Assembly (NCBI GenBank): GCA_964430735.1
Contig: CAYSFB010000004.1
Span: 104,040-168,039 of the forward strand
Length of the DNA: 64,000 nt
Reading direction: 5' to 3'
Source: an uncultured Planctomycetia bacterium
Lineage (GTDB): Bacteria > Omnitrophota > Gorgyraeia > 2-02-FULL-51-18 > JAGOUK01
Below, one piece after another: positions 1 through 58,239 of this stretch. A program made the translations under genes and the position numbers. Position 1 is the stretch's first letter, and each line of letters opens with the position of its first letter. The notes under the pieces were generated by a model. It worked only from the letters and a program-made list of their open reading frames with translations. It did not search any database and had not been told where the DNA came from.

Positions 1-3000
1 ATCTGGCCGGATTCCAGGAAGTGAACAAGCTCAAAACCCTCAAGGACACGGAAAAAAATATTTCCTTCGAGAAGGCCAACCTCGAACAGGAAAAGCTCCT
101 AGCAGAACTCTCCTCCAAGGGCCTCAAAACACAAGTCGACGAATATCTCGCCGCGACCAAAAAAACCCGTAATCTCCAAGTCTCGCAGAGCGTTCTTCTC
201 GGGAATCTCATGGACTTGGCCAAGTCCCAGAGCATCGACACCGCCTCCTTTGTCGAACTCTCGCGCTACAGCGAGTACCTCAAGTTCTTCAGCGCCCTGG
301 ACCTGGAGCAGGTGATGAAGGAAGTGGAGCTTCTGGAAGACACTGTTTACAAGAACCTGCTTCCGGCCGAAGACGGCCGCAAGCTCCGCGCCGTCGACCG
401 CTTCGTGGGGCTTCTGAACAAGGCCTACCGGATCAAGATGTCCTCGCATGACTTCAGGACCTTGGCTGCCAACAAAGACGACTTCAAGACCGAGGCCTGG
501 GAAGCCTTCCTGAACGATCAGCTCCTGAAGCTCTCTTATTTTGATGATCTGGTTCCGCTGAAGCCCCTTCTGGAAGAAGCGGCCGAGCCCCTGTTCAACT
601 TCTACAAGCTCGTGGATCAGCGCGACGACGCCTTCCTGGAGAATACGGGCCGGATTCTGGAAGAAGAGAACGTCCAGGTCGGCTATCTCATCGCCGGCGG
701 CTATCACACCGAGAACCTGACCCGTCTCTTCAAGAACGAGGGCTACTCCGTCATCGTTCTGACTCCCGTCGTCGAATTCGAAACGGATCAGAAGCTCTAC
801 GAAAAAATGCTCCTCATGCCCTTCATCCTCGCCCAGAGCGAAAAGGAAAAAGAGGAACGCAAGCTGGCCAAAGCGGAAGACCCGGACGCCTCCCGATCGA
901 CGCTCGGGCAAACCCGGATGCTCCAGAGCCCTCTATCTGCTAAGAGAGCGGCCGGCGAGATGGACAGGTCCGGTCTTCCGTCCGAAGTCCTCCTCCTCGC
1001 CGCAAGACTCGCCGCCGAACCTAAACACGAGAATACAAAAGAGACCGTTGCGGAGGTGTTGGATAAATCGCTGGAACAGACTGCGAAAGATATGGTCAGC
1101 AGTTTGGTGTTCGATTCGCTTCAGATGGCTGAACCGCTGGAATATGATCCTGCGAAATTTGCCGAAGATCTGAAAAAGGTCCGGAGGCCGGACGGCGCCC
1201 GGCTGGCGGAGGCCGAAGCCCTGCGAGCCATAATGGCCGGCGAGAGATTTGATCGTCAGGGCCTCCCGGATGAGGCGGTCGAGCTTGCCATGAAACTGCA
1301 TGAAAAACTGACGGACGAAACGGGCCGGATGGACATGGCTCTGCTGTCCGATCTTATCGGTTTTATGCGGCTGATCGCTGATGAGTACACGGCTAATGTG
1401 TATTCGATCGACATGGAGGCGGTTGTAGCCGCGATCGCGAATGAAAACAATCGGATATATGCTTCTTATCCGAAGGAACTGGCGCTCATGAAAAGGCAGA
1501 AGCTGATCGAAATCAGCGAATTCTTGGAGAGCGAACCCGACATAGTTTTTGCCGAGGGACCTTGGAGATATCCGAACTTCAAGTATGGGGTGGTCAGAAT
1601 GCTTGAAAGGGCCGGCCGCGCGGCAGGCTTGGGGCAACGGAGTTCGACGAGCGGCGCTCCCCGCTACAGAAAACTGGTAATCGATTATCTGGCAAAGACC
1701 GGCGAGAGTGCCGCTTTTCAGGAAAAAGTCCTGAAGCTGTACGATCGACTTGACGACCTGGGGCAAAGCGGAGCTTCGTTTGGCCTCTTTCGGAACACTT
1801 TGACGCGTTTTGGATACGCTGCGGAAAAAGGGGACATTCAATTCGAGCTGGACTATTTTGAAGACAGATTTCGATCAGATTACCTCCAAGACGAAGAGGA
1901 GGAAAATGACGAAGAAGACGATGATGCAGATAGAGAAAAAGACGGCGTGAGTCGAAAGAGTTATGCCGAATTGCTTTATGAACATCAGATAGAGCTGCTG
2001 AACCTCTTCGTTTCGCTCACCCACGACGGCACGTCGCCCAAAAAAATCATCCATCTTTTGAATTCATCCATCAGCTACGCTGAAAATGAGCAATCCGCCA
2101 CCGAGTCCGGTCGGTTTGTGAGTCTTTCGCGGTTGCTCGCTTTGGGCGCCGAGTTTTATGGCGCGGACCGCAGGCTCTTGCTGATGCCCTCCTATCTTCT
2201 TACGGAACAGCATGCCTACAAGTGGGGGGTCTTGAGGACGATTGACGGCGAAGCCGTTCGTGCCGGACAGCACTCCACCGAAGTTTACGCGACCCGATGG
2301 ATTCCAAGAGGCTATTTCGGACTGTTTCCCCGCAGGATCAAGATTTTAAAAGTGGGAATTGATACGAGCAACTTCGAGGTGTGGGGCGCCCGGATGGCCA
2401 CCACCCAAGACATCAAGCTCAGCAGCTGGCAGGGCAGCAGCAGCATGCTCAAGATGCCCAACGGCGACATCATCAATCTGAATAAGATCGATGTGAAGAA
2501 GTCCGGCGTCCTGAAGGACGGCCAACTCACCGACGTTCCATACATCAGCTGGAAAGAAAGGGATGTGGTCAGAATCTCCTACGGCCCCAATGCCATCAAC
2601 GCCAAAGCCAACACCGAGTACACCGAGACCTTCCTTCTGACGGAAAGCAATTGGAAGAGATCGAGCTCGGCCTTTTACACCCTTCCCAACGGATTCATCG
2701 TGAACTTGAATAAGATCTCGAAGGAATCCGGTCTAAAAGAAAAAGGGGGTGCCGTTAAAGTTGAACAATACACCCTTTGGCAGAAAGGCCAAACGGTCGT
2801 GGTTCGGTACACGACGGAAGCGGTCGTAGGCATCAAGCTCACCGTAAACAGCGAAAGCTACTTTGATCAGGTGGAAGCGGTGCAAGGCGCCCGGATGGCG
2901 ACTGAATCAGATGCAAAAGCATCCAATGAGCTTGCCGATAAAATTATGGGAATTACCTTGGATCTCGAGAATCCGTGGGAGCAACGGCTCGATGCTATTT

Positions 3001-5237
3001 ACGCTTTGATCCGCGGACTTTCTTATGTCCAAATCGCCGGGTTGCTGCGCGCCTATCGTTCCCACGAGCAATTCACGGCGGATGATCTGCGCCTGGCCAC
3101 GGACAGGGCGATTTACGATACATGGATAGGTCGACGCACCGAGGCGGCTAAGGTTCTTATGCAGGCGAAATATCCTGCACCGGAAGCGGAAAAGATAAGC
3201 CGCATTGTTAGCGAGTTGGTCGAAGTGGCTCTGAGCCAAAAAAGATTACCGCTCATGGAAATCGTTCAGGAGAAACTCGAGGGCTTGAATCTGAGGGAGC
3301 GGAAAGCCGTGCACACCGAATACTACTCTCATTCGAACGATCCAGAGTTCCAACAAAACAACGCTTATTACGTCTTCATCGAACGAATTCTCAGAGAAAG
3401 AGCCGAACCGGCTATGGGAGAGCTGGAAGGAGACTTGATTGCCCCCATCGCGCCCTCGGACGGTTCCCGACTGGCCGCCCCCATTCCTTTTTATGCCGGC
3501 CTTCCCATGCTGCAATCCGTGTCCGGTGATCCCAGGGTATTGATGAACCAGGTGAATGCGCACCCTGATACGAAAGCGTTCAAGCAAGCGCTTGTTATGG
3601 CTATAAAAAATGGGGATTCGCGATTCGTAAAAAGTATGGGGATACCGTTAGGCGAAAATCAGACCCTCCCTGGAAGGTTTGAGATTGTTGGGCAGGGCAA
3701 AAGTCGCAGGCTGATGTATTTCGCTGATCGGGAAGATGGTTATCTGGTCATTTACGAGGCGAACCTTCCTGATGAAATCGATAAGGTCATTGCAAAGGCC
3801 ATCGATGATAAATTTGACTCAATGGATGATGTGATAAACGGATTGATCAAATGGGTCAAAACCGATAATGCCGCCCGGATGGCCACCACCCAAGACATCA
3901 AGCTCAGCAGCTGGCAGGGCAGCAGCAGCATGCTCAAGATGCCCAACGGCGACATCATCAATCTGAATAAGATCGATGTGAAGAAGTCCGGCGTCCTGAA
4001 GGACGGCCAACTCACCGACGTTCCATACATCAGCTGGAAAGAAAGGGATGTGGTCAGAATCTCCTACGGCCCCAATGCCATCAACGCCAAAGCCAACACC
4101 GAGTACACCGAGACCTTCCTTCTGACGGAAAGCAATTGGAAGAGATCGAGCTCGGCCTTTTACACCCTTCCCAACGGATTCATCGTGAACTTGAATAAGA
4201 TCTCGAAGGAATCCGGTCTAAAAGAAAAAGGGGGTGCCGTTAAAGTTGAACAATACACCCTTTGGCAGAAAGGCCAAACGGTCGTGGTTCGGTACACGAC
4301 GGAAGCGGTCGTAGGCATCAAGCTCACCGTAAACAGCGAAAGCTACTTTGATCAGGTGGAAGCGGTGCAAGGCGCCCGGATAGCGGGAATGGAAGGTGTC
4401 ATCCGATTCTTGGATTTCCTGTCGGTCAAATTCGAAGCTGAGACGGTGGTCGAGATCAGCGACGTCGGCGATCTGGCGCTTACGTCCGCGTTGGCGCGCA
4501 GGGGCGCGAATCTGAGAGGCGCGTCCAAGTCGCAGCTCGTGAAGTCGTTCAGTCCTTCGGTCAGCGGGATCACGGATGCATTGGGAATGCCGTTGTCTTC
4601 AGGCGATGCCGGCACGATCCGGACGACGCAAGCCGGCGGTCAAGCCGCATTTGGCATCGTCGGCGCCGGTGATCAGCTCGGGCAGCACAAGACGCTGGCC
4701 CGCGTCATATCCGGTATGGGGGATGCGGAAGTTCCCGTGCTTATCACGGTCAACGGTAAAACGGCCTCCACGATCAGCGCGATGTCGGCCAAGGAATGGC
4801 TGGAGTTCTTTTCTCTGCTCGAAACGCTCGTTGGCGGCAATATCTTCGTCGACATCGATGGGATGGGTGAAAAAGACACCGGACACCTTGCTCCCGAGAA
4901 CTCGCGGCAGGGTATTCTGACCGGAGCTGGACAAGGCGAGCTTCTCCGTCTCGGTCTGGGCGGGGCCACAGCCAGCGACGGGCTTCCGGATCCTCTGGCC
5001 CTTCTCGCATACGGTGTTTTGCTGCAAACGGATCCGGGCACCGAGGTTAGTCTGGCCGACCGTCTCGAACGGGTGCTTCCGGGCTCGACTCCGGACGTTT
5101 TGAGGGCCATACGCCAGCTTGCCGAGCAGCGCCAAAAAGAACTGGTATTGAGTCGTCCCTTCAAAAGCCTGTCCCAAGCAGAGCAGTTCTTCGAAGCCTA
5201 CGCGATCGTGCGGGCTGCGATCGTCTGGGCGGCCTAA
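1..5237 (+). CDS. Giant multidomain protein A, N-terminus outside window. It has the C-terminal half of a TraB/Tiki-like domain, an acidic stretch, and two identical ~166-aa beta-rich repeat modules.
   Basis: The ORF is open from the window edge and the track ORF 21-5237 uses GTG. Residues ~1-280 align with residues ~250-500 of the 2802-aa ORF at 44801, for example YLIAGGYHTENL...VIVLTPVVEFETDQKLYEKMLL against VLITGGYHTDHL...AVITPQVIHETDKRGYERLLL. There is a DEEEENDEEDDDAD acidic patch. No recognisable catalytic domain is present in the remainder. Confidence 0.6.
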   Translation, partial: LAGFQEVNKLKTLKDTEKNISFEKANLEQEKLLAELSSKGLKTQVDEYLAATKKTRNLQVSQSVLLGNLMDLAKSQSIDTASFVELSRYSEYLKFFSALDLEQVMKEVELLEDTVYKNLLPAEDGRKLRAVDRFVGLLNKAYRIKMSSHDFRTLAANKDDFKTEAWEAFLNDQLLKLSYFDDLVPLKPLLEEAAEPLFNFYKLVDQRDDAFLENTGRILEEENVQVGYLIAGGYHTENLTRLFKNEGYSVIVLTPVVEFETDQKLYEKMLLMPFILAQSEKEKEERKLAKAEDPDASRSTLGQTRMLQSPLSAKRAAGEMDRSGLPSEVLLLAARLAAEPKHENTKETVAEVLDKSLEQTAKDMVSSLVFDSLQMAEPLEYDPAKFAEDLKKVRRPDGARLAEAEALRAIMAGERFDRQGLPDEAVELAMKLHEKLTDETGRMDMALLSDLIGFMRLIADEYTANVYSIDMEAVVAAIANENNRIYASYPKELALMKRQKLIEISEFLESEPDIVFAEGPWRYPNFKYGVVRMLERAGRAAGLGQRSSTSGAPRYRKLVIDYLAKTGESAAFQEKVLKLYDRLDDLGQSGASFGLFRNTLTRFGYAAEKGDIQFELDYFEDRFRSDYLQDEEEENDEEDDDADREKDGVSRKSYAELLYEHQIELLNLFVSLTHDGTSPKKIIHLLNSSISYAENEQSATESGRFVSLSRLLALGAEFYGADRRLLLMPSYLLTEQHAYKWGVLRTIDGEAVRAGQHSTEVYATRWIPRGYFGLFPRRIKILKVGIDTSNFEVWGARMATTQDIKLSSWQGSSSMLKMPNGDIINLNKIDVKKSGVLKDGQLTDVPYISWKERDVVRISYGPNAINAKANTEYTETFLLTESNWKRSSSAFYTLPNGFIVNLNKISKESGLKEKGGAVKVEQYTLWQKGQTVVVRYTTEAVVGIKLTVNSESYFDQVEAVQGARMATESDAKASNELADKIMGITLDLENPWEQRLDAIYALIRGLSYVQIAGLLRAYRSHEQFTADDLRLATDRAIYDTWIGRRTEAAKVLMQAKYPAPEAEKISRIVSELVEVALSQKRLPLMEIVQEKLEGLNLRERKAVHTEYYSHSNDPEFQQNNAYYVFIERILRERAEPAMGELEGDLIAPIAPSDGSRLAAPIPFYAGLPMLQSVSGDPRVLMNQVNAHPDTKAFKQALVMAIKNGDSRFVKSMGIPLGENQTLPGRFEIVGQGKSRRLMYFADREDGYLVIYEANLPDEIDKVIAKAIDDKFDSMDDVINGLIKWVKTDNAARMATTQDIKLSSWQGSSSMLKMPNGDIINLNKIDVKKSGVLKDGQLTDVPYISWKERDVVRISYGPNAINAKANTEYTETFLLTESNWKRSSSAFYTLPNGFIVNLNKISKESGLKEKGGAVKVEQYTLWQKGQTVVVRYTTEAVVGIKLTVNSESYFDQVEAVQGARIAGMEGVIRFLDFLSVKFEAETVVEISDVGDLALTSALARRGANLRGASKSQLVKSFSPSVSGITDALGMPLSSGDAGTIRTTQAGGQAAFGIVGAGDQLGQHKTLARVISGMGDAEVPVLITVNGKTASTISAMSAKEWLEFFSLLETLVGGNIFVDIDGMGEKDTGHLAPENSRQGILTGAGQGELLRLGLGGATASDGLPDPLALLAYGVLLQTDPGTEVSLADRLERVLPGSTPDVLRAIRQLAEQRQKELVLSRPFKSLSQAEQFFEAYAIVRAAIVWAA
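2387..2896. repeat. First copy of a 510-bp intragenic direct repeat with perfect nucleotide identity to 3872-4381
   Basis: The same nucleotide string cgcccggatggccaccacccaagacatc...gtgcaaggcgcccggat occurs twice, 1485 nt (495 codons) apart and in frame. It encodes ARMATTQDIKLSSWQGSS...QVEAVQGAR in both copies. Confidence 0.8.
3872..4381. repeat. Second copy of the 510-bp intragenic direct repeat
   Basis: Identical to 2387-2896 at the nucleotide level. Each unit also contains two internal ~25-aa sub-repeats: LKMPNGDIINLNKIDVKKSGVLKDG and YTLPNGFIVNLNKISKESGLKEKGG. Confidence 0.8.
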
Positions 5238-5359
5238 CCGTTCCTCTCTATCGAATCGGCCGTGCGGATTTTCGTTCCGCATGGCTGATTTGATGTATAG
5301 TCAAAATAATTTTGTACTTTCTTCTTGAATTTTTTTTAGAAAAAGCTAACATCTTACGC

Positions 5360-5899
5360 ATGAAACACACACCTCTTACCTTGACCACCCTGACCATCAT
5401 CACGGCCCTCATGCTCGCCACCTCGGGTTGCGGGAAGAAGGCCGAAACCACGGCATCCCTTAACACCACCAGTGACCTCGAAGTTCTCGCCGGCCTCGGA
5501 GAAGGAGCAGGCAGCGCGCAGAATACGGTCGAAATCATTCCCGTGCCTCAGTCCCAGGCGGCCTTCCAGGGCGGCATGGATTCGACTCAGGCCATGATGC
5601 AGCAGGGCATCCAGCAGACCGGCCAGGTCGCGGCCGCCGTTGTCAGTGCCGCGGACGTGAAGCCCGGCACGGTTGAGTACGCCAAGAAGATCCAGACGGC
5701 GCTCAAGAACGCCGGCTTCTACACGGGCAACATCGACGGCAAGCTCGGTCCCAAGTCCAAGGAAGCCATCAAGGCATTCCAGGCTCAGAACGGTCTGAAG
5801 GCCGACGGCGTCGCCGGCGCGCAGACCTGGGCCAAGCTCGGCCAGTACTACACGACCTCGGCAGCAGCTCCCGCCGCCGTTTCGACGATCTCCGAGTAA
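5360..5899 (+). CDS. Lipoprotein with a C-terminal peptidoglycan-binding (PG_binding_1-like) domain
   Basis: The signal peptide and lipobox read MKHTPLTLTTLTIITALMLATSGC. The C-terminus ALKNAGFYTGNIDGKLGPKSKEAIKAFQAQNGLKADGVAGAQTW matches the peptidoglycan-binding repeat. The ATG at 5360 is preferred over the track start at 5312. Confidence 0.6.
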   Translation: MKHTPLTLTTLTIITALMLATSGCGKKAETTASLNTTSDLEVLAGLGEGAGSAQNTVEIIPVPQSQAAFQGGMDSTQAMMQQGIQQTGQVAAAVVSAADVKPGTVEYAKKIQTALKNAGFYTGNIDGKLGPKSKEAIKAFQAQNGLKADGVAGAQTWAKLGQYYTTSAAAPAAVSTISE

Positions 5900-6052: not shown

Positions 6053-6724
6053 ATGTTTGAAGAATTCCGCAAAAAGATCGCGACGTTCCTTTTCTTCGCT
6101 CTCGTTCTGCTCGGTCTCGTCGTTTTTCTCAAATTCAAGGACTACTCCGACTTCAAGCGCATCGTCGCCGCGCTCGAGGCGGACTCCCGCGCCGCCGAAG
6201 TGCTCGTGACCGAGTCCAGTCTGGACGAGGCGACCGGCACGTTCACGACCACGATCAAATTCCTCGAATACGATTACAAGGGCGGGTCGCTGCCGCCGCG
6301 GTACTTCACGTTCCGGGGCAACCAGATCCAATTCCAGGCGCTCGTTGTCCGTTTTGAGGACGGCTATGTCGAACGCGGCCACCGGCTCAAGGGCAAGAGC
6401 GTCTACCTGTTCACCAAGGCCTTCGTCCTCGACGGCCAAAACACCCAGGAGTTCGTGATCACGCCGACCCAGGGCGTGCCGCGCGGCTACGAAGTCCCGG
6501 GCGCGCCGTCCGCGATGCAGAAAAAAATCTGGGCCAATTTCTGGTCCTATGTGTTGAATCCGAAGGCCCGCAAAGGCGTCGGCATCCGGAACGCCCAGAT
6601 CGAAGCGCCCGGCTCCGTGTTCGTGCCCGGCACTTTGTACGACATCCGGATCGAGCACGACGGCGGCCTGCGCATCGACGCCAAGCCGATCCCGGCCGTT
6701 CTGCGCGGCGAGACCATCCTGTGA
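6053..6724 (+). CDS. Hypothetical membrane-anchored protein
   Basis: There is an N-terminal TM helix ([17 protein letters not shown]) and the composition is coding-like. Its stop overlaps the uvrA GTG start. No homolog is recognised. Confidence 0.45.
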
Positions 6725-9546
6725 GCCTCCGCAACGACATCTACGTCAAAAACGCCCGGGAGCACAACCTCAAGGGCATCGACGTCCGGATCCCGCGCAA
6801 CTCGCTGACCGTCATCACGGGTCTTTCCGGGTCGGGGAAGTCCTCTCTTGCCTTCGACACGATCTACGCGGAGGGTCAGCGCCGCTACGTTGAGTCCCTC
6901 TCCGCCTACGCCCGCCAGTTCCTGGACCAGATGCACAAGCCGGACGTCGAGCTCATCGAAGGGTTGTCGCCGGCCATCTCGATCGAGCAGCGCAACGCGG
7001 CATCCAATCCGAGATCGACGGTCGGAACCGTCACCGAGATCTACGACTATCTCCGGCTCCTGTTCGCCTCCGTCGGCATCCCGCACTGCCACCGCTGCGG
7101 CAAACGCATCGCCAGCCAGAGCGCCCAGGAAATCGTCGAATCGGTCCTGAAGCAGGGGAAGACCGGCTGGCACCTCTCGGTGCTCGCGCCCGCCGTCGAA
7201 GGCCGCAAGGGCGAATACAAGACGATCTTCAAGGACATCGCCAAGCAGGGCTTCGTCCGCGTCCGCGTCGACGGCGAAATCCGCGAAGTCGGCGACAAGG
7301 CCAACAACACGCTCGACAAGAACAAGAAGCACACGGTCGAAATCGTCGTCGACCGGCTGGTGCTCAAGCCCGAGAATAAGAAACGCATCACCGACTCGGT
7401 CGAGACGGGTCTTAAGACCGGCAAGGGTCTGATCCGGGTTCTGACCGAGAACCCTTCCGACAAAAAAGAGCGCGACGAACGGCTCTATTCCGAGCTCCAC
7501 GCCTGCGCCGATTGCGGAATCTCCATCGACAAGATCGAGCCGCGCATGTTCAGCTTCAACAGCCCGTACGGCGCGTGCAAGTCCTGCGACGGTCTGGGCA
7601 ACAAGATGGAGATCGACCCCAAGCTTGTCGTACCGGACCCGTCCAAATCGCTGCGTGAAGGCGCGATCGAACCCTGGAAGCGCGGCGGCAAGTCCTACGT
7701 CATTTATCTCCGGCGCCAGCTCCGTTACCTCGCCGAAAAGAACGGCTTCAGCTACGACACGCCGTTCGGCAAGCTCACCAAGGCCCAGCAAAAACTGGTC
7801 CTCGACGGCGACGGCCGCGGCGTGGACGGTGACTTCGAAGGGGTGATCCCGAACCTCGAGCGGCGCTTCCACGAGACCGAATCCGAGTACATGAAGAACG
7901 AGATCAACAAGTACATGAGCGAGCAGGATTGTCCCGACTGCAAGCGGCGGCGCCTCAAGCCGGAGAGTCTGGCCGTGAAGTTCCGCGACCAAAGCATCAT
8001 GGACGTGACGGACCTCTCCATTGTGGGAGCGATCCAGTTCTTCGAATCGCTCAAGCTGACCGCGACCGAAGAGCAGATCGCGCGTCAGATCATCAAGGAG
8101 ATCAGCGAGCGCCTGACCTTCATGAAAAACGTCGGCCTCGACTACCTGACCTTGAGCCGCACGTCGGGATCCCTTTCCGGCGGCGAAGCCCAACGCATCC
8201 GCCTGGCGACCCAGATCGGCGCAGGCCTCATGGGTGTGCTGTACGTGCTCGACGAGCCCTCCATCGGTCTGCATCAGCGCGACAACTCCAAGCTGCTCAC
8301 GACGATGAAGCGGCTGCGTGATCTCGGCAATACGCTCATCGTCGTCGAACACGACGAAGAGACGATGCTCGAGGCCGACTATCTGCTCGACCTGGGTCCG
8401 GGCGCGGGGAAACACGGCGGATACCTGATCGCCGCCGGCACGCCGAAGGAAGTCATTGCGAACGAAAAATCCCTGACCGGCCGTTATCTTGCCGGCAAAG
8501 CCGGTATTCCCGTCCCGGCCAAGCGCCGTGATGCCAAGGCGGCCAAAAAGATCACCGTTCACGGCGCGCGTGAACACAACCTGAAGAACGTCACGGCCGA
8601 ATTTCCGCTGGGCCTCCTGACCTGCGTCACGGGCGTCTCGGGATCCGGCAAGAGCACGCTGATCGAGGACATCCTGTGCCGCGGCCTGATGCAGAAGCTC
8701 TATGATTCCAAGCCCAAGCCGGGCGTTCATGACAAGATCACGGGCATTGAACACATCGACAAGTGCATCGTCATCGACCAGTCGCCGATCGGCCGCACGC
8801 CGCGCTCCAACCCCGCGACGTACACCGGCATGTGGGGCCCGGTCCGCGACCTCTTCAGCCGCCTGCCCGAATCGCGCGTGCGCGGGTTCGACCCGGGCCG
8901 CTTCAGCTTCAATGTGAAGGGCGGCCGTTGTGAGGCCTGCGAAGGCGATGGCGTGAAGGTCATCGAAATGCACTTCCTGCCCGATGTTTACGTCGAATGC
9001 GAAGTCTGCAAAGGCCGCCGCTTCAACGACCAGACGCTCGAGGTGACGTACAAGGGCAAGAATATCGCCGAAATCCTCAAGCTCTCCGTCGAGGATGCGA
9101 TGACGGTGTTCAAGGACGTGCCCGCGGTGATGGGCAAGCTCCAGACGCTGCACGACGTCGGCCTCGACTACATCGAACTCGGCCAGTCGGCGACGACCCT
9201 TTCCGGCGGCGAGGCCCAGCGCATCAAGCTCGCGACCGAGCTCTCCAAACGCGCGACGGGTCGCACCCTGTATATCCTGGATGAACCGACCACCGGCCTG
9301 CACTTCGCCGACATCGCCAAGCTGCTCCAGGTGCTCCAGACGCTGGTCGACCGCGGCAACACCATCATCGTGATCGAGCACAACCTCGACGTCATCAAAA
9401 CCGCCGATCACCTGATCGATCTGGGGCCCGAAGGCGGGGACGGCGGAGGCACGATCGTCGCGCAGGGAACGCCGGAAGCGGTCGCCGTAAATCCCAAGTC
9501 TTTTACGGGCCACTACCTCAAGCGCGCTCTGGGGATCAAGAAGTGA
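6721..9546 (+). CDS. uvrA: Excinuclease ABC subunit A
   Basis: The N-terminus reads [58 protein letters not shown]. Two ABC modules, zinc-finger cysteines and LSGGEAQRI signature motifs are present. Confidence 0.95.
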
Positions 9547-11948
9547 CTTCCCGGTTCCGGGCCGCCGCGGCCGCCATGTTTCTGACTGCCGCCCTTTCAG
9601 TATTCGGCGGTCCGGCCACGGCCGGAGAATCCGACGATTTTGTCCTCGTGACCAAGACCTTCGACGACCGTTTGTACGACCTGACCCGCACCCACGCCGA
9701 AGCCTTCGTGCAAAAGTATCCGGCTTCTCCCGAAGCGTCCCGCGCCCGGTTTTTGCTGGGGCGTTCGCTTTTCGAACTGAACCGGCCCGCCGAAGCGCTG
9801 ACCGTCTTCGAGGCGCTCGCGAAGACGCCCGGATTGACGGGCCTCAAGGATCAGGCGTTATTTTGGACGGGGGAGTGCTATTTCCGCCTCAAGGATTACA
9901 CGACCGCGATTCAGCGGTATCAGGTCATTCCTCAGGAGTTCCCGTCCTCGGACCTCGCGCCGATCGCACGCTATTCGATCGCGTGGTCGCTGGAGCGGCT
10001 GGGCAACGCCGCCGAAGCCACCGCCGCGTACGAAGAGCTGCTCGTCGCGCACCCGGACAGCCCCTACGCCGCGGACAGCCGGTTCAACATCGGCCGCCTC
10101 GCCTTCGAGCGCGCGGACTACGATCAGGCGGCCGACACGCTCCGGCGTTTCGTCCAGGATCACCCGCTGCACGCCAAGGCAGCGGAAGCGTATTACCTGC
10201 TCGGCGAGACGTATTTCAACCTCAAGGATTTTCCGGAAGCGCTCCGGTACTTCAAGTCCGTTCCGGCATCCGCGGACACGTCGGATTTCCACGTGTTTCT
10301 GCTGCATGGCCTCGCCTGGACCTATTTTCAGCTGGAGCGGTACCCGGAGAGTCTGGAGGCATTTTCGCCGTTCGTCGACGAGGTTAAAGGGAGCCCGATC
10401 GAGGATTCGTTTTTGTTCGGCCGCGCGCGGGTGCTGCAGAAGCTCAAGCGGTTCGATGAAGCGCTCGCGGCGTTCGAGGATGTGGAAAAGCGCTTTCCGG
10501 ATTCCGCGCTGGCGGACGACACGCTGTTTTGGGAAGGCGAAGCTTATTACGACCGAGGCGATTACGGAAAAGCGGCGTCCAAGTGGCGGCGGCTGCTCGA
10601 ACGTTTTGATGCCAGCGATCTGAAGGAAAAAACCCAGTACAATCTGGCTTGGGCCTGTTTTAAGCTCGACAACGACGAGGAGGCCGTCAAATATCTGTCG
10701 CTGGTCCGTCACCATGGCCGGGACCCCTATCTCCGGGTGTCCGCCGCCTGTCAAATCGGCGACACGCTCCTCGAGCGAGGCAAATACGCTGAGGCGATCG
10801 CCGTGTACGACGAAGTGCTGGGCGAATATCCGGATTCGGTGCTCTCCGATTACGCCCAATACCAGCTGGCCGGCGCTTTTTTGAAGTCGCGCAACACGGC
10901 CGGCGCCATCCTGGGCTATCAGGCGCTGATCCAGAATTATCCCCAAAGCGCCTACCGGGACGACGCGCTGTACGCGTTGGGCTTCGCTCAGATGTCCCAG
11001 AACGAACATCGTTCGGCGCTCGCTTCGTTTCAGGGACTCGTGCGCCAGTATCCTGAGAGTCCGCTCCGCCGCCGGGCCTATTACCAGACCGGCGTCTGCC
11101 AGCTGAACATCGGCGCTCATGACGAGGCGCTCAAGATTTTTTCGGAACTCAAATCCGGATCGCAGGACGGGGAGCTTGCGCTCCTGTCGGCGTTTCAGGA
11201 GGCCCAGGCGCTCATCAAGCTCGGCCGCCGTGCCGACGCGCTGCGGGTGCTGGAGCGGCTCATGCAGGACGCGCCCGGCTCGCGGCTGGCGCCCGAAGCG
11301 TTGCATCTGATCGGCGAAACGCTGCTCGAGGACGGCAGATTCAAGGAAGCGGCCGACGCGTTCGACCGTTTTACAGGTGAGTACCCGCGCCACGAGCTGG
11401 CGGACAACGCGCTGCTGCGGCTGGCCGAGGAAGCCGAGCGCGCCGGTCTCACCGACGCCGTGTCGCGGTATCATGAGTTGGTCCAGCGGTACCCGGCCGG
11501 GGACGCGGCTCCGGCGGCGGCCCGCCGCTACACCGAACTCTGCATCGGTTCCGGCCGCGTGCGGATGGCCAAGCGCGAGCTGCTCAAGTGGCACGGCGCG
11601 GCCAAAGATCCGGCGTTCAAGGCGATGCTGGCCGGCAAGCTGGGCGAAATTCTGAAGATCGAAGGCAGCCGGGACGAAGCTCTTTTTTATTTGAGGGAAG
11701 CGCTGACCGGCTCGGCCGAGCCGGACGCGGCGCGGATCCAGTTCCTAATCGGCGAGACGCTCGAAGAGAAGTCGGACTTTGAGGGGGCGGTCAGCGAATA
11801 TCTCAAGGTCGGGTACCTGTACCCGGCCGAACAAAAGTCCGCTCTGGAAGCGAACCGGCGCGCCGCCGCGATCCTCGAATCGCAGGGCCGCACGGCGGAA
11901 GCGGAACAGATTCTGGAAAAATCACAAACCGTCAACGGAGGGGAATAA
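9543..11948 (+). CDS. Secreted tetratricopeptide-repeat protein (YbgF/Tol-Pal-associated-like)
   Basis: There is a signal peptide, [27 protein letters not shown]. More than 15 TPR-like units repeat the pattern ...A.Y.LG.....G.Y..A...F.. Confidence 0.7.
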
Positions 11949-38139: not shown

Positions 38140-41100
38140 ATGGGCCGCATGAAAATGCGGCCCATTTTGCGTTTGATCACCGGCGCTGCCGGTACGGGAA
38201 AAACCTCCCGCTGCATCGAACTGTTCCGGGACCGCATCCTCGCTTCCGGCGGCTCCGGCCTCGATTCCGCGTCCTACTTCATCCTTCCCAATAAAGAGCA
38301 TACCGACCGCATCCACGACGTGCTGACCCGCGACCCCCGCGTCGGCGGACTCGTTCAGCATCATCTGCTGCCCATCGGCGACTTCGTCCGCTTCAAATGC
38401 TGGACGGGCCGCGACCGCGTCGTGACCCAGTTTGAACGCCGCTGGTTTGCCCGGCGTGTGCTCGACGCCGGTGCCTGGACCTGGATGGCGCAGAGCGCCG
38501 GAACAGCCGGTATGGCCGACTGCATGGCCAATTGGATTCGCGCGATGAAAACCGCCGGCGCGGACGCGGCGGGGTTCGAGCGGGCCGCGCGCGGGCCGTT
38601 GGCGGCGGCCGGAGATCCGGACAAGCTCCGCGACCTGACGGCGTTTTACCGCGATTACGAGAATCTGGTCCGCGCCGAAGGATGGCAGGACCCGGAGGAC
38701 GCGGTCGCCGCTTACGCGCGCGCGACGGCGGAACGTCCCGAGGCGGCGCCCGCCGAGATGGACCTCGTCGTCCTGGACGGGTTCTTCAGTTTGACGCATC
38801 AACAGCTCGTTTTTCTGGAAGCGGCGGCGCGGCGGTCGGCCGAGACGGTGGTCACGCTCACGCTGCCGGAAGCGGCGGAGGAGGGCGTCCGGGCGGAGGC
38901 CTTTTTGTACCCGCTGCGGTTACGGCGGAAGCTGCTCGGAATGGGCTTCGTCGAGGAGCGGATCGCGGATGCGCCGCGCCGGTTCAAGAGCGCCGGGTTG
39001 GCGGCGTTGGAGCGGAGTTTGCCGGCGCCGGCTGCGGAGACGGACGCGTCGGGGGTGCGGCGCATCGAGGCGGCGGGCCGGCGGCAGGAGGTCGAAGCGA
39101 TCGGCCGCGCGATGGCGGCGCAGGTGCGCAGCGGCCGCTGCCATTGGAGCGATCAGATGGCCGTTTTTCGCGGCGTGCTCGCGTATCGGCCGTACCTCGA
39201 AGAAGTTTTTGGCGCGCTGGAAATTCCGTACGAACTGCACGAGCGCCGCCGGCTGTCGGAGCATCCTTCGGTCCGGCGGATGATCGAGTGGCTGGAGCTC
39301 ACGGAGCCCGCGGAGGCGGCGGAGGGCGCTCCGGCGGTGATCCGGGTACATCGCTGGGCGATGTGGATGGACGCGCCGGAGGTTCAGCGCGAGCTGGACG
39401 CGCTGCCGTCGCGGCTGGTGTGGGAGCAGATTCCTGAGGCGGTTTCCGGGTCCTCGACGGACTGGGAGCGGGAGCGCGGACGGATGAAGCGCTTTTTGGA
39501 GCTGGACGATGCGCGCGGACTCAAGACTTTTCTGGAGGAGCTGTTCCGGGATTGTGCGGGGGAACAGGCTCTGCCCGAGACCCGGCGCGCGGCGGATTTG
39601 ACGCGCGAGCTCATCGAGCGGCAGGCGGTGCGGCCGATCGCCGGCCGCGAGGGCGTGCGCGCGGCCGTCGAGCGGTTCCGAGGGGATTTGAAGTCGGGGT
39701 TGTACTCGTTTTCGGACCGGCGCAAGAACTGCGTTCAGATTTATGACACGGCGCTGGCGCTTCCCAAGGAATACCGGATCGTGTACGTCGGCGGGCTGAA
39801 CCACGGGGAATTTCCGGCCGCGCATCGGGAGGATCCGATTCTGGCCGACGCGGAGAGGCGGATTCTCGCGGCCGAAGGGTACGAGCTGGACACGGCCGAG
39901 GACCGCCGGAAGGGCGAGGCGTTTTTTTTCTATATGGCCGCGACGCGCGCATCGGAAGAGCTGGTGCTGTCGCGGTTCGCGGCGGATGACGAGGGCCGCT
40001 CGACGGCGGAGTCGGCCTGGTGGCGCGCGGCGGCCGACGTTTTTGGCGGGACGCTGTCGACCGAGCGCCTGGAATCCGACGCGCTCCTTCCTCCCGCGCC
40101 GCAGCTGCGGCTCCCCAAAGACCTCATCAAAAAATCCGGTCAGGCGCTTGCGCCGGGATCGCCGGACGCCGCGTGGGCGCCCGCGCTCGGCGCGGCCTGG
40201 GACCGGCTCGACGCCGTCGACCGGCGTTTGGCCGGCTTCGGCGGAACGGCCGAAGACTTCGGCGGCCGATGCGCGCAATTCCGGAGGCCGGCGGCGGTGA
40301 ATCCGGAGCTGCTGGGTCCGGCGGCTTTTCAACGCCGCAAGCCCTGGAGCGCGACCGAGGCGCAGTCGATCCGTCAATGCCGGTTCAAATATTTTGCGCA
40401 GTACGGCATCGGCATCAAGCCGCCGGTCGAAACGACGCCGGTGATGCGCGAAGGCGAAATCTGGCACAAAGCGCTCGAGATTCTGATGCGCCAGGTCTTC
40501 GGCGGCGGCAAAGGCGGGCCGCGGCCGGTGCGGGAAGCCGTGTTCCGGGCGGCTCCGGCGGCCCTTGAGCAGGCGCTGCGAGAACATCCGCCGGTTCCGG
40601 AGCGGTTCTATTCACGGACGGCCCGCCTGGAGCGGATCCGCCGCCGGTGGCCCCGGGTCGTCGAAGCCGAATGGGACAATCTCGCGGCCACGCGGTCTCT
40701 CGCCCCGGCTCATTTTGAAGCGGGATTTGGTCTCGTCGAAAATGGCGTGCCGTCGGACCGGCCCGCGTTTGCGGTGACGGCCGGGAGCGAGCGGCTGGAA
40801 TTCCAGGGCAAAATCGACCGGATCGACGCGGACCCGGCGTCGGGGCGCGCGCTGGCCGTCGATTACAAAAGCGGCAAGGGCTTTGCGCCCGCCGAGCTCA
40901 AAAAAGGGATGCGCTTCCAGGCCGTCCTTTACGCCCTCGCGCTGGAAAAAGTGTGGGGGTATCAGCCGGTGGGAACGGAGTATGTGTCGCTCAAGAGCTT
41001 CAAGCGCGGCGGCCTGTTGCGCGAGGATTATTTTTTGGAAGAGCGGCCGAAGAGCCGTTTGAAAAACCTCATGGATGCCGCGACCTTTGACGCGTTCATT

Positions 41101-41235
41101 GCCGGCGAATTAGCCGCGCTGGCCGGGGACTGGGGCGCGTACAAGTCCGGCGATATCGCGGCCGACTCCAAGAGTTGTCAAAACTGCGACTTTTATCCGA
41201 TGTGCCGTTATGAAAAACGACGCGACAAAAAATAA
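38140..41235 (+). CDS. addB: AddB-type helicase-nuclease subunit (N-terminal P-loop, C-terminal PD-(D/E)XK nuclease with Fe-S cysteine cluster)
   Basis: The N-terminus carries the P-loop LITGAAGTGKTS. The C-terminus carries QCRFKYF...VDYKSGKG...CQNCDFYPMCRY (Cys4). It is positioned immediately upstream of addA. Confidence 0.75.
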   Translation: MGRMKMRPILRLITGAAGTGKTSRCIELFRDRILASGGSGLDSASYFILPNKEHTDRIHDVLTRDPRVGGLVQHHLLPIGDFVRFKCWTGRDRVVTQFERRWFARRVLDAGAWTWMAQSAGTAGMADCMANWIRAMKTAGADAAGFERAARGPLAAAGDPDKLRDLTAFYRDYENLVRAEGWQDPEDAVAAYARATAERPEAAPAEMDLVVLDGFFSLTHQQLVFLEAAARRSAETVVTLTLPEAAEEGVRAEAFLYPLRLRRKLLGMGFVEERIADAPRRFKSAGLAALERSLPAPAAETDASGVRRIEAAGRRQEVEAIGRAMAAQVRSGRCHWSDQMAVFRGVLAYRPYLEEVFGALEIPYELHERRRLSEHPSVRRMIEWLELTEPAEAAEGAPAVIRVHRWAMWMDAPEVQRELDALPSRLVWEQIPEAVSGSSTDWERERGRMKRFLELDDARGLKTFLEELFRDCAGEQALPETRRAADLTRELIERQAVRPIAGREGVRAAVERFRGDLKSGLYSFSDRRKNCVQIYDTALALPKEYRIVYVGGLNHGEFPAAHREDPILADAERRILAAEGYELDTAEDRRKGEAFFFYMAATRASEELVLSRFAADDEGRSTAESAWWRAAADVFGGTLSTERLESDALLPPAPQLRLPKDLIKKSGQALAPGSPDAAWAPALGAAWDRLDAVDRRLAGFGGTAEDFGGRCAQFRRPAAVNPELLGPAAFQRRKPWSATEAQSIRQCRFKYFAQYGIGIKPPVETTPVMREGEIWHKALEILMRQVFGGGKGGPRPVREAVFRAAPAALEQALREHPPVPERFYSRTARLERIRRRWPRVVEAEWDNLAATRSLAPAHFEAGFGLVENGVPSDRPAFAVTAGSERLEFQGKIDRIDADPASGRALAVDYKSGKGFAPAELKKGMRFQAVLYALALEKVWGYQPVGTEYVSLKSFKRGGLLREDYFLEERPKSRLKNLMDAATFDAFIAGELAALAGDWGAYKSGDIAADSKSCQNCDFYPMCRYEKRRDKK

Positions 41236-44200: not shown

Positions 44201-44404
44201 ACGGTCGCCGAAAAGTGGGAACACCATGATCAGGCGCGCATCTACGCTTTTTGTCTCAAGCAACTGCTTCGGGGGAGACCTCACCGGGCGGCATTGTATT
44301 ACTCACGAGACGGATCGATGGTGCCGGTGGATTTGAAGGCGCTGGAATCTGAAGATTTTAAGCTGGAATTGAGGGAGCGGTTCGAGGCGCTTAAAACGTA
44401 CTAG
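41210..44404 (+). CDS. addA: AddA/UvrD-family ATP-dependent helicase-nuclease subunit
   Basis: The UvrD Walker A is VSAAAGSGKTRVLVERFA. The blocks ITYTQKAADEL, LVDEYQDVN, VGDARQAIYGFRH and TVHASKGLEFPVV are present. The C-terminal nuclease reads GQVDLLFEAPDGKWTLVDYKT. Confidence 0.8.
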   Translation: MKNDATKNNPSASPELSAAQAQAVHCAAADVCVSAAAGSGKTRVLVERFARLVLEHGIAPGRIIAITYTQKAADELRERIERRLIAAGRDLNEHREPAIGTIHGFCLRLLQENAVDAGLDPAFRVLQGDLYEAVVEEAIEETLDEAMRGDPARFAPMLEYSDPSALKSALLQGYERARTLGRRPEPHPAPDPAGLSARIRHWAADVNAWKKELPEKQSDRIGGAADALLAEGADPEALLTALLEIGEPLRLIRRTKALEETATAFLETLETLTAETADAAAAPYNARFAELLERLAAAVAIRKRIGSWVDLHDLMDRVIELLDRPAFQARIRTEYAALLVDEYQDVNALQAKLLDRLGRGLETFVVGDARQAIYGFRHSESAFFIERFARAARSGAAVEIPENFRSRPEVVGWINQVFARRSHAGGLYGDLQARRASAGSGPAVECLWTAPPEGEKLKADALRQLDAAQAAAAILRFTAGGSVRFGDIAVLLSRMTALPAYEDAFRRAGIRYHVMRGRGFYEKNEIVDLVNLFRAVRDPEEPLYLAALLRSPFAGLRDEDIWKIFKNDRADARPAAYEDFVRWFAPLAALRRELTLSQILERALAGSAFEAVTLAQPDGLRRFANIRKFKDVLREFEGLYGSNLDAFVARLEERMDGEAEERETEAAVASERGDAVRILTVHASKGLEFPVVIAADLSGTAPKSRSAGAFVVDDDARILSNPPAPDEDGERIPSAAFLAYQETRAEKEGAESLRLFYVAATRARERLVLCGSLPDTAAGSRKKKSAVSWTDIVLEAFPESVAAVPAGFAVAPGSAPASESTLPVSTADGLWEQLQDRSRPYRQSVDVTVSDLSGAAQEADDIPDAERRTVMADGTESEATLLGASNAGRLFHEMIQHAVFSRDPKEEQARLMSDFGHRMDAAARPDFEQGIQRFLSSRLAEDLRASERAGRPIYRELPFFYRVRGESGERDPGSIKGQVDLLFEAPDGKWTLVDYKTTVAEKWEHHDQARIYAFCLKQLLRGRPHRAALYYSRDGSMVPVDLKALESEDFKLELRERFEALKTY

Positions 44405-44482
44405 AGGAGGGAGTCGAACCCTCAACCCCTTGCGGGGAGTGGATTTTGAGACCACCGCGTATGCCAATTCCGCCACTCTAGC
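44399..44482 (-). tRNA. tRNA-Leu (anticodon CAA), type II with long variable arm
   Basis: The minus-strand sequence gctagag tg gcggaattggcatacgc g gtggt ctCAAaa tccac tccccgcaaggggtt gaggg ttcgact ccctc ctctagt a has a D-arm and variable arm collinear with bacterial tRNA-Leu. A G1-U72 wobble and a U31-U39 mismatch are inferred. The 3-prime end overlaps the addA stop. Confidence 0.7.
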
Positions 44483-44492
44483 AAAAGAAAAA

Positions 44493-44568
<76 letters not shown>

Positions 44569-58100: not shown

Positions 58101-58239
58101 GACGCGCGTACCGATGGCGGTCGGCGTGATCGGCGGCGTGCTCGTTTCGACGGTCCTGACGCTCTTCGTCGTGCCCTGTGTCTACCAGATCCTGTCGGGG
58201 CTCGAACGCGCAAAGTATTCCGCTTCCGCCTCCGAGTGA
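55147..58239 (+). CDS. RND efflux transporter permease (AcrB/HAE1 family)
   Basis: The N-terminus is MTLSDISIKNPVFAWMLMAALILFGWISY. There are 12 TM segments and two large periplasmic loops; the length is 1030 aa. Confidence 0.9.
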   Translation: MTLSDISIKNPVFAWMLMAALILFGWISYKELGVSEMPDVDFPVIAVSLKWEGAAPEVMESDVVDVVEDAIMSVQGVREISSTTRQGTADVSIEFELTRDIDVALQEVQSKIAQAQLRLPVDMDPAIIAKFNPTDQPIIWLGLAGSRPKRDLMGYVQDVLKDRFQTIDGVGDIMLGGYVERNLRVWVSMGKLAEYQLTVNDVMDAVRSGHSEMPAGRIETPEKEMNIRAMGEAMTVEDFGNIVVSRRGGLPVYKPIYLKEVATIEDGLADQRTFSRVQGETAVGIGIRKQRGKNAVAVAEEVKKRLAEVQKELPEGMSLGINFDSTHFAQEAIDELIFTLILSALLTAVVCWIFLGSWSSTLNVLLAIPTSILGTFLVFKFFNFTLNTFTVLGLSLAIGIVVDDAIMVLENIVRHREMGHKQVAAAQIGARQITFAAMATTLALMAIFLPVAFMKGIIGKFFFQFAVAISAAVGLSLLEALTLTPMRASQFLKVGERATAFGRGVEKAFHKLSEGYQRWLVAALDRKWIVVGVSVLIFVVSLMLFGKLRKEMVPAQDQSMFLARITTPVGSSLEYTDSKFKIAEEIVMKTPEVNRYYAAVGGFSGGETNAGMLFVTLKPKNERPVREGKSRPLSQQELIDVFRVELNKIPDAKAFIQDLSTRGFTAQRGFPIEFSVHGRNWEQLGQAATDLIKKMEATGLMVDVDTDYQLGVTEVRVMPDRQKALERGVEMSTIGEAINALFGGARVGKYSRDGRRYDVRVRLRPEDRVSPDDIKKVYVWNNRGELVKLTDVASIELKPSLLSITRKGRERAIGIFGNVAPGKSQADALAAVEKLGKEMPEGTRIVFSGSATVFKESFQSLFFALGLGIIVAYMILASQFNSYVHPFTVLMALPFSITGALVALFIMNQSLNLYSMIGIILLTGIVKKNSILLVDFTNQNRREGKSTRDALLTACPARLRPILMTSIATIAAAVPPALAMGPGAETRVPMAVGVIGGVLVSTVLTLFVVPCVYQILSGLERAKYSASASE

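Follow-up and report, generated by a model that had tools for sequence, protein, structure and literature searches.

A five-residue junction motif delimits exchangeable cassettes in a family of head-bearing giant proteins and may mark processing sites

The window analyzed here, a 64,000-nucleotide (nt) stretch of contig CAYSFB010000004.1, carries two open reading frames (ORFs) for giant proteins, ORF A and ORF B, which share an N-terminal head domain of about 470 amino acids (aa). They are best read as Sec-exported modular giants, remote members of a large family whose loci lie nearly all in metagenome-assembled genomes (MAGs) labeled Omnitrophota. The layout of such a giant is a signal peptide, the head, a string of cargo specific to the gene, and a terminal module of ~290 aa ending in -[S/A]-A. 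A short motif, G-A-R-[L/M]-[A/S], lies at every junction, including those from head to cargo and from cargo to terminal module, and delimits cassettes that were duplicated and passed from one giant to another. Confidence in this family and its cassette architecture is high. It is also possible, with odds slightly short of even, that the motif is a site of proteolysis, judging from its sequence features; that the protein's own head makes the cut is a more tentative proposal.

A head domain common to two giants and a large family

The two ORFs and their heads are placed as follows.

3-5237, plus strand: ORF A, C-terminal 1744 codons and stop of the 1994-aa protein P0001
3-839, plus strand: ORF A head, C-terminal ~58% (P0001 residues 251-529), from profile and alignment
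44801-53209, plus strand: ORF B, complete, 2802 aa
44978-46300, plus strand: ORF B head, from profile and alignment

The reading frame of ORF A (frame 3) extends from base 3 of the window to a stop at 5235-5237 and, as a sequence-only reading of this DNA had noted, is cut by the left edge of the window. The deposited full-length protein, P0001 (1994 aa), is 100% identical across the in-window part, is encoded on the same 238-kb NCBI contig as ORF B, and contributes 250 N-terminal residues upstream of the window: a signal peptide (...WSILVIMAFSLQEAAFA, then GP) and the first half of the head. With its signal peptide and complete head, P0001 refutes the possibility, raised in the earlier reading, that ORF A is a fragmentary pseudogene. 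The N-terminus of ORF B also resembles a signal peptide or anchor, its hydrophobic stretch being residues 28-50. BLASTP aligns residues 67-271 of ORF A with residues 283-492 of ORF B (29% identity over 220 columns, E=2e-17), so that the domain proposed to be shared, GGYHT block included (696-710 in ORF A, 46157-46171 in ORF B), holds up at clear significance. Beyond the head alignment, no segment pair between the two has E<1, in agreement with the claim that the rest of ORF A is unrelated to ORF B. A family profile matches in-window residues 2-271 of ORF A (profile positions 194-463, E=1.8e-87) and ORF B (E=2.3e-115), and no others in a six-frame translation of the window. The description of A and B as paralogs stands as far as head homology goes, but they are not recent paralogs: identity of the ORF A head reaches 44-68% with its closest relatives and 27-29% with the head of ORF B, and on this sequence comparison the two are assigned to different subfamilies.

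In GTDB, taken as one genome per species, at least 303 head loci were confirmed, with up to seven copies per genome. The best 80 of these 303 loci lie almost all in Candidatus Omnitrophota MAGs or in third-party-annotation (TPA) bins named 'uncultured Planctomycetia'. The nearest family members of the window giants come from MAGs labeled Candidatus Omnitrophota and, going by these nearest members only, the host organism would be an Omnitrophota bacterium. Its housekeeping proteins form singleton clusters at 90% identity. Among 5.8 billion proteins, relatives of ORF A align over only the N-terminal 14-19% of the query; relatives of ORF B, of 1.8-4.9 thousand aa (kaa), are likewise similar in the head only, except P0021 (33% of the query). 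The idea of a family of giants with one common domain and variable cargo is thus borne out, with two refinements. The giants share not just the head but also a signal peptide, the junction motif, and a C-terminus in -[S/A]-A, and their variable cargo is organized in motif-bounded cassettes that recur at differing positions among giants. A signal-like N-terminus is present in 81 of 104 members. The longest complete member is P0014 (4891 aa, of the same head subfamily as ORF A), and eight fetched giant ORFs exceed 3,800 aa and leave the fetched DNA.

The head occurs in two settings, either at the front of a giant or as a stand-alone protein of 480-650 aa in conserved housekeeping synteny. Two such syntenies were seen, with gene identities assigned by reading the sequences and not checked against Pfam. 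In one (L028, L033, L041, L054, L057, L060, L075), GlmS, an LpxA-like acyltransferase, and RsmI lie downstream; in the other (L036, L042, L044, L053, L055, L059, L064, L065), a GH94-like phosphorylase, an ROK protein, and a sugar ABC permease lie upstream. Synteny is confined to the stand-alone heads, and no protease or secretion genes are conserved beside the giants. Members can also stand in tandem: in L006 (9854-14713 and 14717-21388), a 1620-aa giant ending ...ATLSSA directly precedes a second giant.

A junction motif that delimits cassettes

The copies of the motif in the two ORFs are the following, all on the plus strand.

999-1013, plus strand: ORF A junction motif, AARLA
1194-1208, plus strand: ORF A junction motif, GARLA
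2385-2399, plus strand: ORF A junction motif, GARMA
2886-2900, plus strand: ORF A junction motif, GARMA
3462-3476, plus strand: ORF A junction motif, GSRLA
3870-3884, plus strand: ORF A junction motif, AARMA
4371-4385, plus strand: ORF A junction motif, GARIA variant
46382-46396, plus strand: ORF B junction motif, AARLA
49025-49039, plus strand: ORF B junction motif, GARLA, DNA GGCGCGCGGCTGGCG
49349-49363, plus strand: ORF B junction motif, GARLS
50576-50590, plus strand: ORF B junction motif, GARLA, DNA GGCGCGCGGCTGGCG
52334-52348, plus strand: ORF B junction motif, GARLA, DNA GGCGCGCGGCTGGCG

Counted as [GA][AS]R[LM][AS], ORF A holds six copies (0.05 expected from shuffles) in addition to the GARIA variant, and ORF B holds five (0.18 expected); eleven other window proteins hold one in total. 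Across 143,750 aa of cargo from 68 giants, GARLA (76), GARMA (38), and GARLS (28) are the three commonest 5-mers. The residue after G-A-R is Leu in 58% and Met in 21% of cases, followed by Ala (61%) or Ser (15%); this cargo shows no enrichment of Val, Ile, or Phe at the Leu/Met position. Head-bearing ORFs are ~26-fold denser in motifs than the other ORFs of at least 300 aa from the same 80 loci, where the headless motif-rich ORFs are only left-truncated tails of neighboring giants. Two left-truncated motif-rich ORFs, L032:2-4852 and L039:1-1893, lie ahead of head-bearing ORFs. The first motif always falls 71-130 aa downstream of GGYH, and successive motifs are a median of 272 aa apart (interquartile range 167-419). 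Polar and small residues are enriched and hydrophobic residues depleted in the flanks (p down to 1e-13), and no Pfam envelope in ORF B, L013, or L073 contains a motif. Other clades carry variants: PPRM[TAS], xARF[TS]E, and SSR[LM]S.

The sole motif outside ORF A and ORF B among the proteins counted is GSRLA at 11277-11291 (DNA GGCTCGCGGCTGGCG), in a tetratricopeptide repeat (TPR) protein at 9543-11948; it is probably there by chance.

Between the motifs lie the cargo and terminal modules.

1209-2384, plus strand: ORF A cargo module 1, ~392 aa, helical, including the acidic stretch at 1890-1931; no homolog found
2387-2896, plus strand: ORF A beta-rich module, copy 1, two ~80-aa sub-repeats, exact 510-nt repeat
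2901-3461, plus strand: ORF A cargo module, ~187 aa, orphan
3477-3869, plus strand: ORF A cargo module, ~131 aa, orphan
3872-4381, plus strand: ORF A beta-rich module, copy 2, DNA 100% identical to 2387-2896
4386-5234, plus strand: ORF A C-terminal module 'type A', ~283 aa, ending AIVWAA
46391-49024, plus strand: ORF B cargo module, residues 531-1408, homologous to P0009 695-1660 and P0021 728-1699 (motif-bounded)
49040-49348, plus strand: ORF B small module, residues 1414-1516, recurring between motifs in P0017 1933-2044
49364-50575, plus strand: ORF B module with an S-adenosylmethionine (SAM)-methyltransferase-like region, from Pfam
50591-52333, plus strand: ORF B module with a Ser/Thr-kinase-like N-lobe, from PknA and PD-T4-6 kinase models
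52349-53206, plus strand: ORF B C-terminal module 'type B', ending ...LQSLSRVSVSESA

The two identical modules that had been noticed in ORF A are an exact direct repeat of 510 nt (2387-2896 and 3872-4381), and each copy is itself an older internal duplication of ~80 aa (39% identity, E=3e-10). The two copies are flanked by unrelated sequence, and the duplicated segment is one motif-to-motif unit with both edges within motif codons (GCCCGGATGGC). Short-read assemblers can create or misplace a repeat that is 100% identical, and ORF A forms a singleton cluster from one contig only. However, it is highly improbable that the repeat is misassembled or that ORF A is a pseudogene fragment: 1994 codons are open with signal peptide and head intact, the two copies of the repeat keep the frame and have the family's own junction motif at their edges, ORF B and its neighboring genes were found independently in a second assembly source, and the architecture is common to close relatives.

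Exchange between giants follows the same boundaries. ORF B and P0017 share a head block (17-532 vs 18-535), a small module at a shifted position (1415-1522 vs 1933-2044), and a terminal module (2512-2802 vs 2272-2562), and all these blocks begin or end at a motif in both proteins. The 880-aa module that ORF B shares with P0009 and P0021 is motif-bounded likewise, as is the terminal module that it shares with P0018-P0020. Over 69 giants, 34% of the ends of cargo homology blocks lie within 10 aa of a motif compared with 5% by chance, a value of 34% being reached in none of 200 randomizations, and the median distance from block end to motif is 23 aa compared with 128 aa by chance. These data show that the motif delimits the cassettes that are duplicated and exchanged. 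In the ORF A relative P0004, a GSRMS motif precedes a J-domain (residues 1361-1440) that begins six residues beyond the motif's Met, about the same offset as from the initiator Met in free DnaJ. Cargo modules may be whole former proteins.

The head as a candidate hydrolase

In alignments of 14 members and of 42 more diverse members, D-x-H, E, several G/Y, R, G-G-x-H, and P are invariant. ORF B carries these residues as D95 (45083-45085), H97 (45089-45091), E125 (45173-45175), R428 (46082-46084), and H456 (46166-46168). In ORF A the Arg codon is at 621-623 and the GGYHT block holds invariant His485 of P0001, whose D88-x-H90 and E118 are encoded upstream of the window. An AlphaFold2 (AF2) model of the head, with a predicted local distance difference test score (pLDDT) of 89.7 and a predicted template modeling score (pTM) of 0.85, shows an alpha/beta core with D-x-H, E, and GGYH at the strand ends of strand-helix units. 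The core is split by a ~300-residue bundle of about 15 helices.

TIKI-superfamily enzymes have a 2His/2Glu catalytic set with a nearby conserved basic residue, on a parallel beta-sheet core flanked by helices (PMC6254334). The active-site residues of the member RRSP are E3900/H3902/E3930/R4001/H4030 (PMC6254334). By its sequence, the head would carry the corresponding set of two His, two acids, and an Arg, with Asp instead of Glu as the first acid. It resembles the superfamily in its acid-x-His, in a Glu 28 residues on, and in an Arg ~28 residues before the second His, which lies in a G-x-x-H-like block (GGYH); the H-to-E and R-to-H spacings are both 28, and 28 and 29 in RRSP. In the model, the alpha/beta core with catalytic-type residues at strand ends would also be that of the TIKI/TraB-PrgY/ChaN/Ere group, RRSP included, and a helical insertion is known from Ere enzymes. 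Unlike in the superfamily, the first acid is Asp and not Glu, the first block reads Q-D-A-H and not G-x-x-H, the insert (~300 aa, 15 helices) is far larger, and the head is always N-terminal, after a signal peptide, and joined to cargo of a thousand residues or more.

Searches with the head gave matches to this superfamily below threshold. PF04187 (ChaN, Tiki superfamily) matched 8 of 56 members (3/14 and 5/42; best E 3.7e-5), none at the curated cut-off and neither ORF A nor ORF B among them. Foldseek against PDB placed ChaN 2g5g (0.44) first and EreC 6xcs (0.28) also among its three highest-probability matches, with the Ere-family Bcr135 (3b55/2rad) further in the list, all of these TIKI-type matches at E>=0.27. 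Profiles of the whole head and of its insert-free core retrieved nothing meaningful, and no TIKI protein, from PDB sequences. There is, in sum, no significant sequence or fold match to the TIKI superfamily, nor one to any Pfam family of the TIKI clan. Because its residue pattern and spacing mirror an RRSP-type site, and because of the sub-threshold PF04187 and Foldseek matches, the head is predicted, with somewhat better than even confidence, to be a TIKI-superfamily hydrolase; the earlier label 'TraB/Tiki-like' is therefore plausible, on sub-threshold evidence only.

Processing of the giants

It is proposed that the giant is exported by Sec, that the motif then serves as a proteolytic processing site, and that the gene product would thus be a polyprotein whose modules are set free separately following export. 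The candidate scissile bonds would be those between Arg and Leu/Met or between Leu/Met and Ala. The head, encoded in cis, would be the most economical candidate for the protease, because characterized TIKI-fold enzymes include the endopeptidases Tiki and RRSP. Tiki takes off the N-terminus of Wnt3a between Leu and Ala at about ...S-L-A-V. RRSP, of the head's candidate superfamily, is a site-specific endopeptidase (PMC6254334). The motif is proposed as a protease site because it is strict and short, has an invariant Arg followed by Leu/Met, stands in linker-like sequence, and is found at every boundary. Further reasons are its lineage-specific variants, its linkage in cis to a head with a full hydrolase-type residue set, and the P0004 J-domain, which begins six residues after the motif Met as in free DnaJ.

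Several observations weigh against this reading. Relative to each protein's own usage, the synonymous codons of the motif favor GGC GCG CGG YTG GCG (109 instances, p 1e-7 to 1e-9; observed/expected GGC 60/33, GCG 62/33, CGG 47/22, TTG+CTG 57/34), meaning that some of the conservation lies in the DNA. Moreover, motifs cluster 9-40 aa apart just past the head and occur a few residues from natural C-termini, an arrangement that, as far as sequence can tell, would suit a cut site and a binding or recognition element equally well. Many genomes have stand-alone heads that keep the invariant residues but carry no cargo, and therefore the head must have another substrate or one in trans. Finally, much of the relatives' cargo resembles cytoplasmic enzymes dependent on ATP or phosphoenolpyruvate (PEP), which is odd for a Sec-exported protein. 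The codon bias was also noted at the ORF A motifs 1194-1208 and 2886-2900.

The codon bias bears most directly on the possibility that the giants stay whole, with the motif a linker and/or an in-frame DNA microhomology for cassette swapping and with no cleavage at all. To the bias can be added the 15-mer GGCGCGCGGCTGGCG, identical at three ORF B junctions and absent from the rest of the window, the exact duplication in ORF A that ends within motif codons, and the cassette edges that fall on motifs; whole multi-enzyme giants are also the default view in the Omnitrophota literature (bioRxiv 10.64898/2026.06.07.730766). However, the amino-acid pattern is retained across lineages despite differing codons (AGA/CGA/CGT/CGG; CTC/CTG/TTG), Ser replaces Ala and Met replaces Leu while Val, Ile, and Phe are not enriched, and the motif variants specific to lineages are at the protein level. 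Motifs at or near natural C-termini have no cassette beyond them, and a pure DNA joint would not require an invariant Arg followed by Leu/Met. That the giants remain uncleaved is possible, though rather doubtful. The codon bias suggests that motif DNA also serves, or has been passed on, as an in-frame joint in the exchange of cassettes, a role that is compatible with that of a protease site.

Two further roles of the motif DNA were considered and rejected. As an internal start codon, its Met/Leu would be expected to show enriched Val (GTG), which it does not; CTC and CTT Leu codons are present, and there is no Shine-Dalgarno-like conservation upstream. As for a genome-wide Chi-like signal, the exact 15-mer is confined within this window to ORF B junctions.

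If the motif is cut, the protease could also be a separate one, either an Arg-specific endopeptidase or a PDZ-type C-terminal processing protease, while the head has another job such as esterase activity, ChaN-like binding of haem or another ligand, or anchoring in the envelope. Stand-alone heads are common and stand in housekeeping synteny unconnected with giants, and the closest Pfam family, ChaN, is one of binding proteins. The C-termini could point the same way, since Tsp/Ctp proteases favor small apolar C-termini, and 19 of 26 complete giants examined end in -[S/A]-A (WAA, WSA, VSA, QSA, ESA) or -RMA/-M-A, while a cut after motif position 2 would give similar -G-A/-A-A ends. Nevertheless, a separate protease is considered improbable: motif and head are closely coupled in cis (~26-fold, headless motif-rich ORFs being only left-truncated fragments), the head of every giant examined has the complete hydrolase-type residue set, and no conserved protease gene adjoins the giants. 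Cleavage of the motif by the protein's own head is itself offered as a possible mechanism, in the range of what is tentative.

Cargo and terminal modules

The cargo of ORF A is orphan sequence and, going by sequence comparison, its function would be unreadable from homology: it matched nothing in Pfam, NCBIfam, PDB, or PADLOC. The acidic DEEEENDEEDDDAD stretch noticed earlier is present at 1890-1931. The beta-rich module has no homolog in an exhaustive HMMER search made with the last 455 aa of ORF A (3870-5234) against 1.84 billion representatives. A word-indexed search with the same query missed its own parent protein, which the exhaustive search found, so word-indexed negatives need caution for Gly/Ala-rich queries. 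AF2 applied to the beta module and C-terminal module together gave a pLDDT of 38 from a 3-sequence alignment. NCBIfam sorting-signal and family models match neither ORF.

In ORF B, the methyltransferase-like Pfam match (residues 1797-1897, nt 50189-50491) is slightly under the curated cut-off, and the kinase-like N-lobe (residues ~2217-2349) is matched by PknA at E=2e-4 and by PD-T4-6 kinase models at E=2e-6. An anti-phage defense system was considered and rejected, as the PADLOC matches reflect generic kinase similarity only. Relatives of ORF A carry low-molecular-weight (LMW) phosphatase, DnaJ, and GNAT/HEAT cargo. Each relative of ORF B carries 1-8 different Pfams, which include inositol monophosphatase, alpha/beta hydrolases, CofD, response-regulator receiver, protein kinases, methyltransferase, GH77, glycerophosphodiesterase, SecA cross-linking domain, M20 peptidase, TPR, FHA, HPr, and PEP-utilizing enzyme.

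The C-terminus of ORF A, described earlier as Gly/Ala-rich, is so over its last ~285 aa, which end ...AIVWAA. In the same HMMER search, the only homologs of this type A module are the C-terminal ends of P0014 and P0015, each with GARLA ahead. Type B is the conserved last ~290 aa of ORF B and P0017-P0020. Homology between the two types was rejected (hhalign probability 0.9%), and profiles of both retrieved nothing meaningful from PDB sequences. The complete giants whose ends were compared include P0001-P0009, ORF B, L003, L004, L017, L058, L063, L067, L069, and L072. R-[LM]-[AS] often lies a few residues before the C-terminus, and one giant ends exactly ...AGRMA; no -[S/A]-A or -RMA ending was found in stand-alone heads and distant members. 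The -[S/A]-A end could be a C-terminal recognition tail.

These cargo types raise the possibility of a carrier like the MARTX or polymorphic toxins, with which a host-dependent Omnitrophota cell would deliver kinase, methyltransferase, phosphatase, and J-domain into its host or prey. Signal peptides, enzyme types typical of injected effectors, a fast turnover of often orphan cargo, and a third-position GC (GC3) lower than in housekeeping genes are all consistent with it. Omnitrophota have been inferred to be host-dependent and their giants tied to predation (PMC10066038; bioRxiv 10.1101/2023.11.21.568195), and the TIKI-fold protease RRSP is itself a MARTX effector (PMC6254334). Nonetheless, such a carrier appears distinctly unlikely: RTX repeats and a C80 cysteine-protease domain are lacking, neither ORF is adjoined by type I secretion genes or followed by an immunity-like small gene, and a variable middle with a C-terminal module conserved within subfamilies is the reverse of polymorphic toxins. 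Moreover, HPr, PEP-utilizing enzyme, CofD, and GH77 look metabolic rather than toxic.

Likeness to known systems

The same toxins can be compared as architectures. MARTX linkers are cut after Leu by a protease domain in cis. Like MARTX toxins, the giants are single exported polypeptides with exchangeable enzymatic modules shuffled by recombination. Unlike in MARTX, the candidate protease is of another fold and at the N-terminus, the junction is a fixed 5-mer, and cleavage is a prediction from the motif's features. Neither RTX repeats nor Peptidase C80 is matched by Pfam or NCBIfam models in P0001 and ORF B, and type I secretion genes (ATP-binding cassette (ABC) exporter with HlyD) are absent near ORF A and ORF B. 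Polymorphic toxins such as Rhs and contact-dependent inhibition (CDI) systems share a conserved N-terminal part and a cargo diversity driven by recombination, but the diversity of the giants is internal and multi-module and their C-terminal module is conserved. Neither Rhs/YD or filamentous-haemagglutinin repeats nor an adjacent immunity gene were found, the downstream genes being a peptidoglycan (PG)-binding protein and a MarR regulator. With a conserved C-terminal module and no immunity gene, the giants are not polymorphic toxins.

Viral polyproteins resemble the giants in that each is the product of one ORF, has a protease-like domain in cis, and repeats a short conserved motif wherever modules meet; such a motif is indeed present at every boundary here. 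Unlike viral polyproteins, the giants are chromosomal bacterial genes amid housekeeping genes, their modules are not a fixed functional set, and their processing is a prediction from sequence.

Giant proteins of Omnitrophota have been described by Nielsen & Lui (2026 preprint), West-Roberts et al. (2023 preprint), and Seymour et al. (2023), and post-translational cleavage of these giants has been suggested (bioRxiv 10.64898/2026.06.07.730766; bioRxiv 10.1101/2023.11.21.568195; PMC10066038). West-Roberts et al. state that the cleavage points are unknown and that this gap blocks analysis of the giants (bioRxiv 10.1101/2023.11.21.568195). The proteins studied here are like these multi-enzyme giants in that they probably belong to the same phylum, have a signal peptide with or without transmembrane (TM) segments, and are mostly sequence-unique. 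ORF B and its relatives are also like them in having many unrelated enzyme-type Pfams tiled along the chain, unlike ORF A, whose cargo has no Pfam at all. The published catalogs start at >=10 kaa or >20 kb, while ORF A (2.0 kaa) and ORF B (2.8 kaa) lie below. Term searches of both preprints found no Tiki/TraB, polyproteins, common N-terminal head, or junction motif; in term searches of the three main Omnitrophota papers and full-text literature searches, neither the head domain nor the junction motif was described.

Genomic context

The other genes of the window are ordinary chromosomal ones: UvrA, the TPR protein, a TolQ-like protein, a glycosyltransferase/epimerase cluster, DnaG, RpoD, AddAB, MarR, an outer-membrane efflux protein (OEP), an AcrB-type pump, MgtE, LeuRS, and five tRNAs. 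Because of these surroundings, the window is taken as bacterial chromosome rather than a mobile element. ORF A is neighbored by the PG-binding protein and UvrA, and ORF B by AddAB, MarR, OEP, and the AcrB-type resistance-nodulation-division (RND) pump. The small PG_binding_1 protein (5312-5899, same strand) lies directly downstream of ORF A. A pair of tRNA genes on the minus strand, tRNA-Leu(CAA) at 44398-44482 and tRNA-Ala(GGC) at 44493-44568, separates AddA from the start of ORF B; the tRNA 3' ends face away from ORF B, so that nothing there clearly indicates an island targeted to a tRNA. Between 14717 and 30408, a long one-strand series of overlapping ORFs forms a surface-polysaccharide cluster, among the first four genes of which SGNH/AlgX-like, NAD-epimerase, and GT4 glycosyltransferase genes were annotated.

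GC3 is 0.66 in ORF A and 0.75 in ORF B (3-5234 and 44801-53206), compared with 0.81-0.86 in housekeeping genes (6721-9546, 38140-41235, 55147-58239, 59672-62176), and the overall GC of ORF A is 7-8 points below that of the housekeeping genes. The low GC3 of both giants and the low GC of ORF A suggest a foreign origin or relaxed codon adaptation.

Implications for Omnitrophota giants

Giants that mostly defy annotation are characteristic of Omnitrophota, and the field does not yet know if they work intact or as separate parts. Giant modular proteins of the phylum and the TIKI fold were known already; the junction motif, the evidence for cassettes, and the size of the family are new here. The head and its five-residue motif provide a concrete candidate processing site, and the motif provides a rule for splitting giants into domain-sized units for structure prediction. 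Motif-to-motif cassettes offer a mechanism of cargo diversification. It is conceivable, if uncertain, that Omnitrophota possess true bacterial polyproteins in which a Sec-exported TIKI-fold head cuts its own tail at the motif and so sets free groups of enzymes and binding modules, the 15-nt motif DNA (GGC GCG CGG YTG GCG) doubling as an in-frame recombination joint; a genuinely new self-processing polyprotein system remains, likewise, a speculative prospect. Should the motif not be cleaved, it would still give the family, with its 303 or more loci, a recombination and linker grammar. If cleavage is true, the giants would be genes expressed as polyproteins, which is rare in cellular organisms, and the TIKI fold would gain a new role; if self-processing is true, the motif would be the missing 'cleavage code' with which the giants of the phylum could be parsed into functional units.

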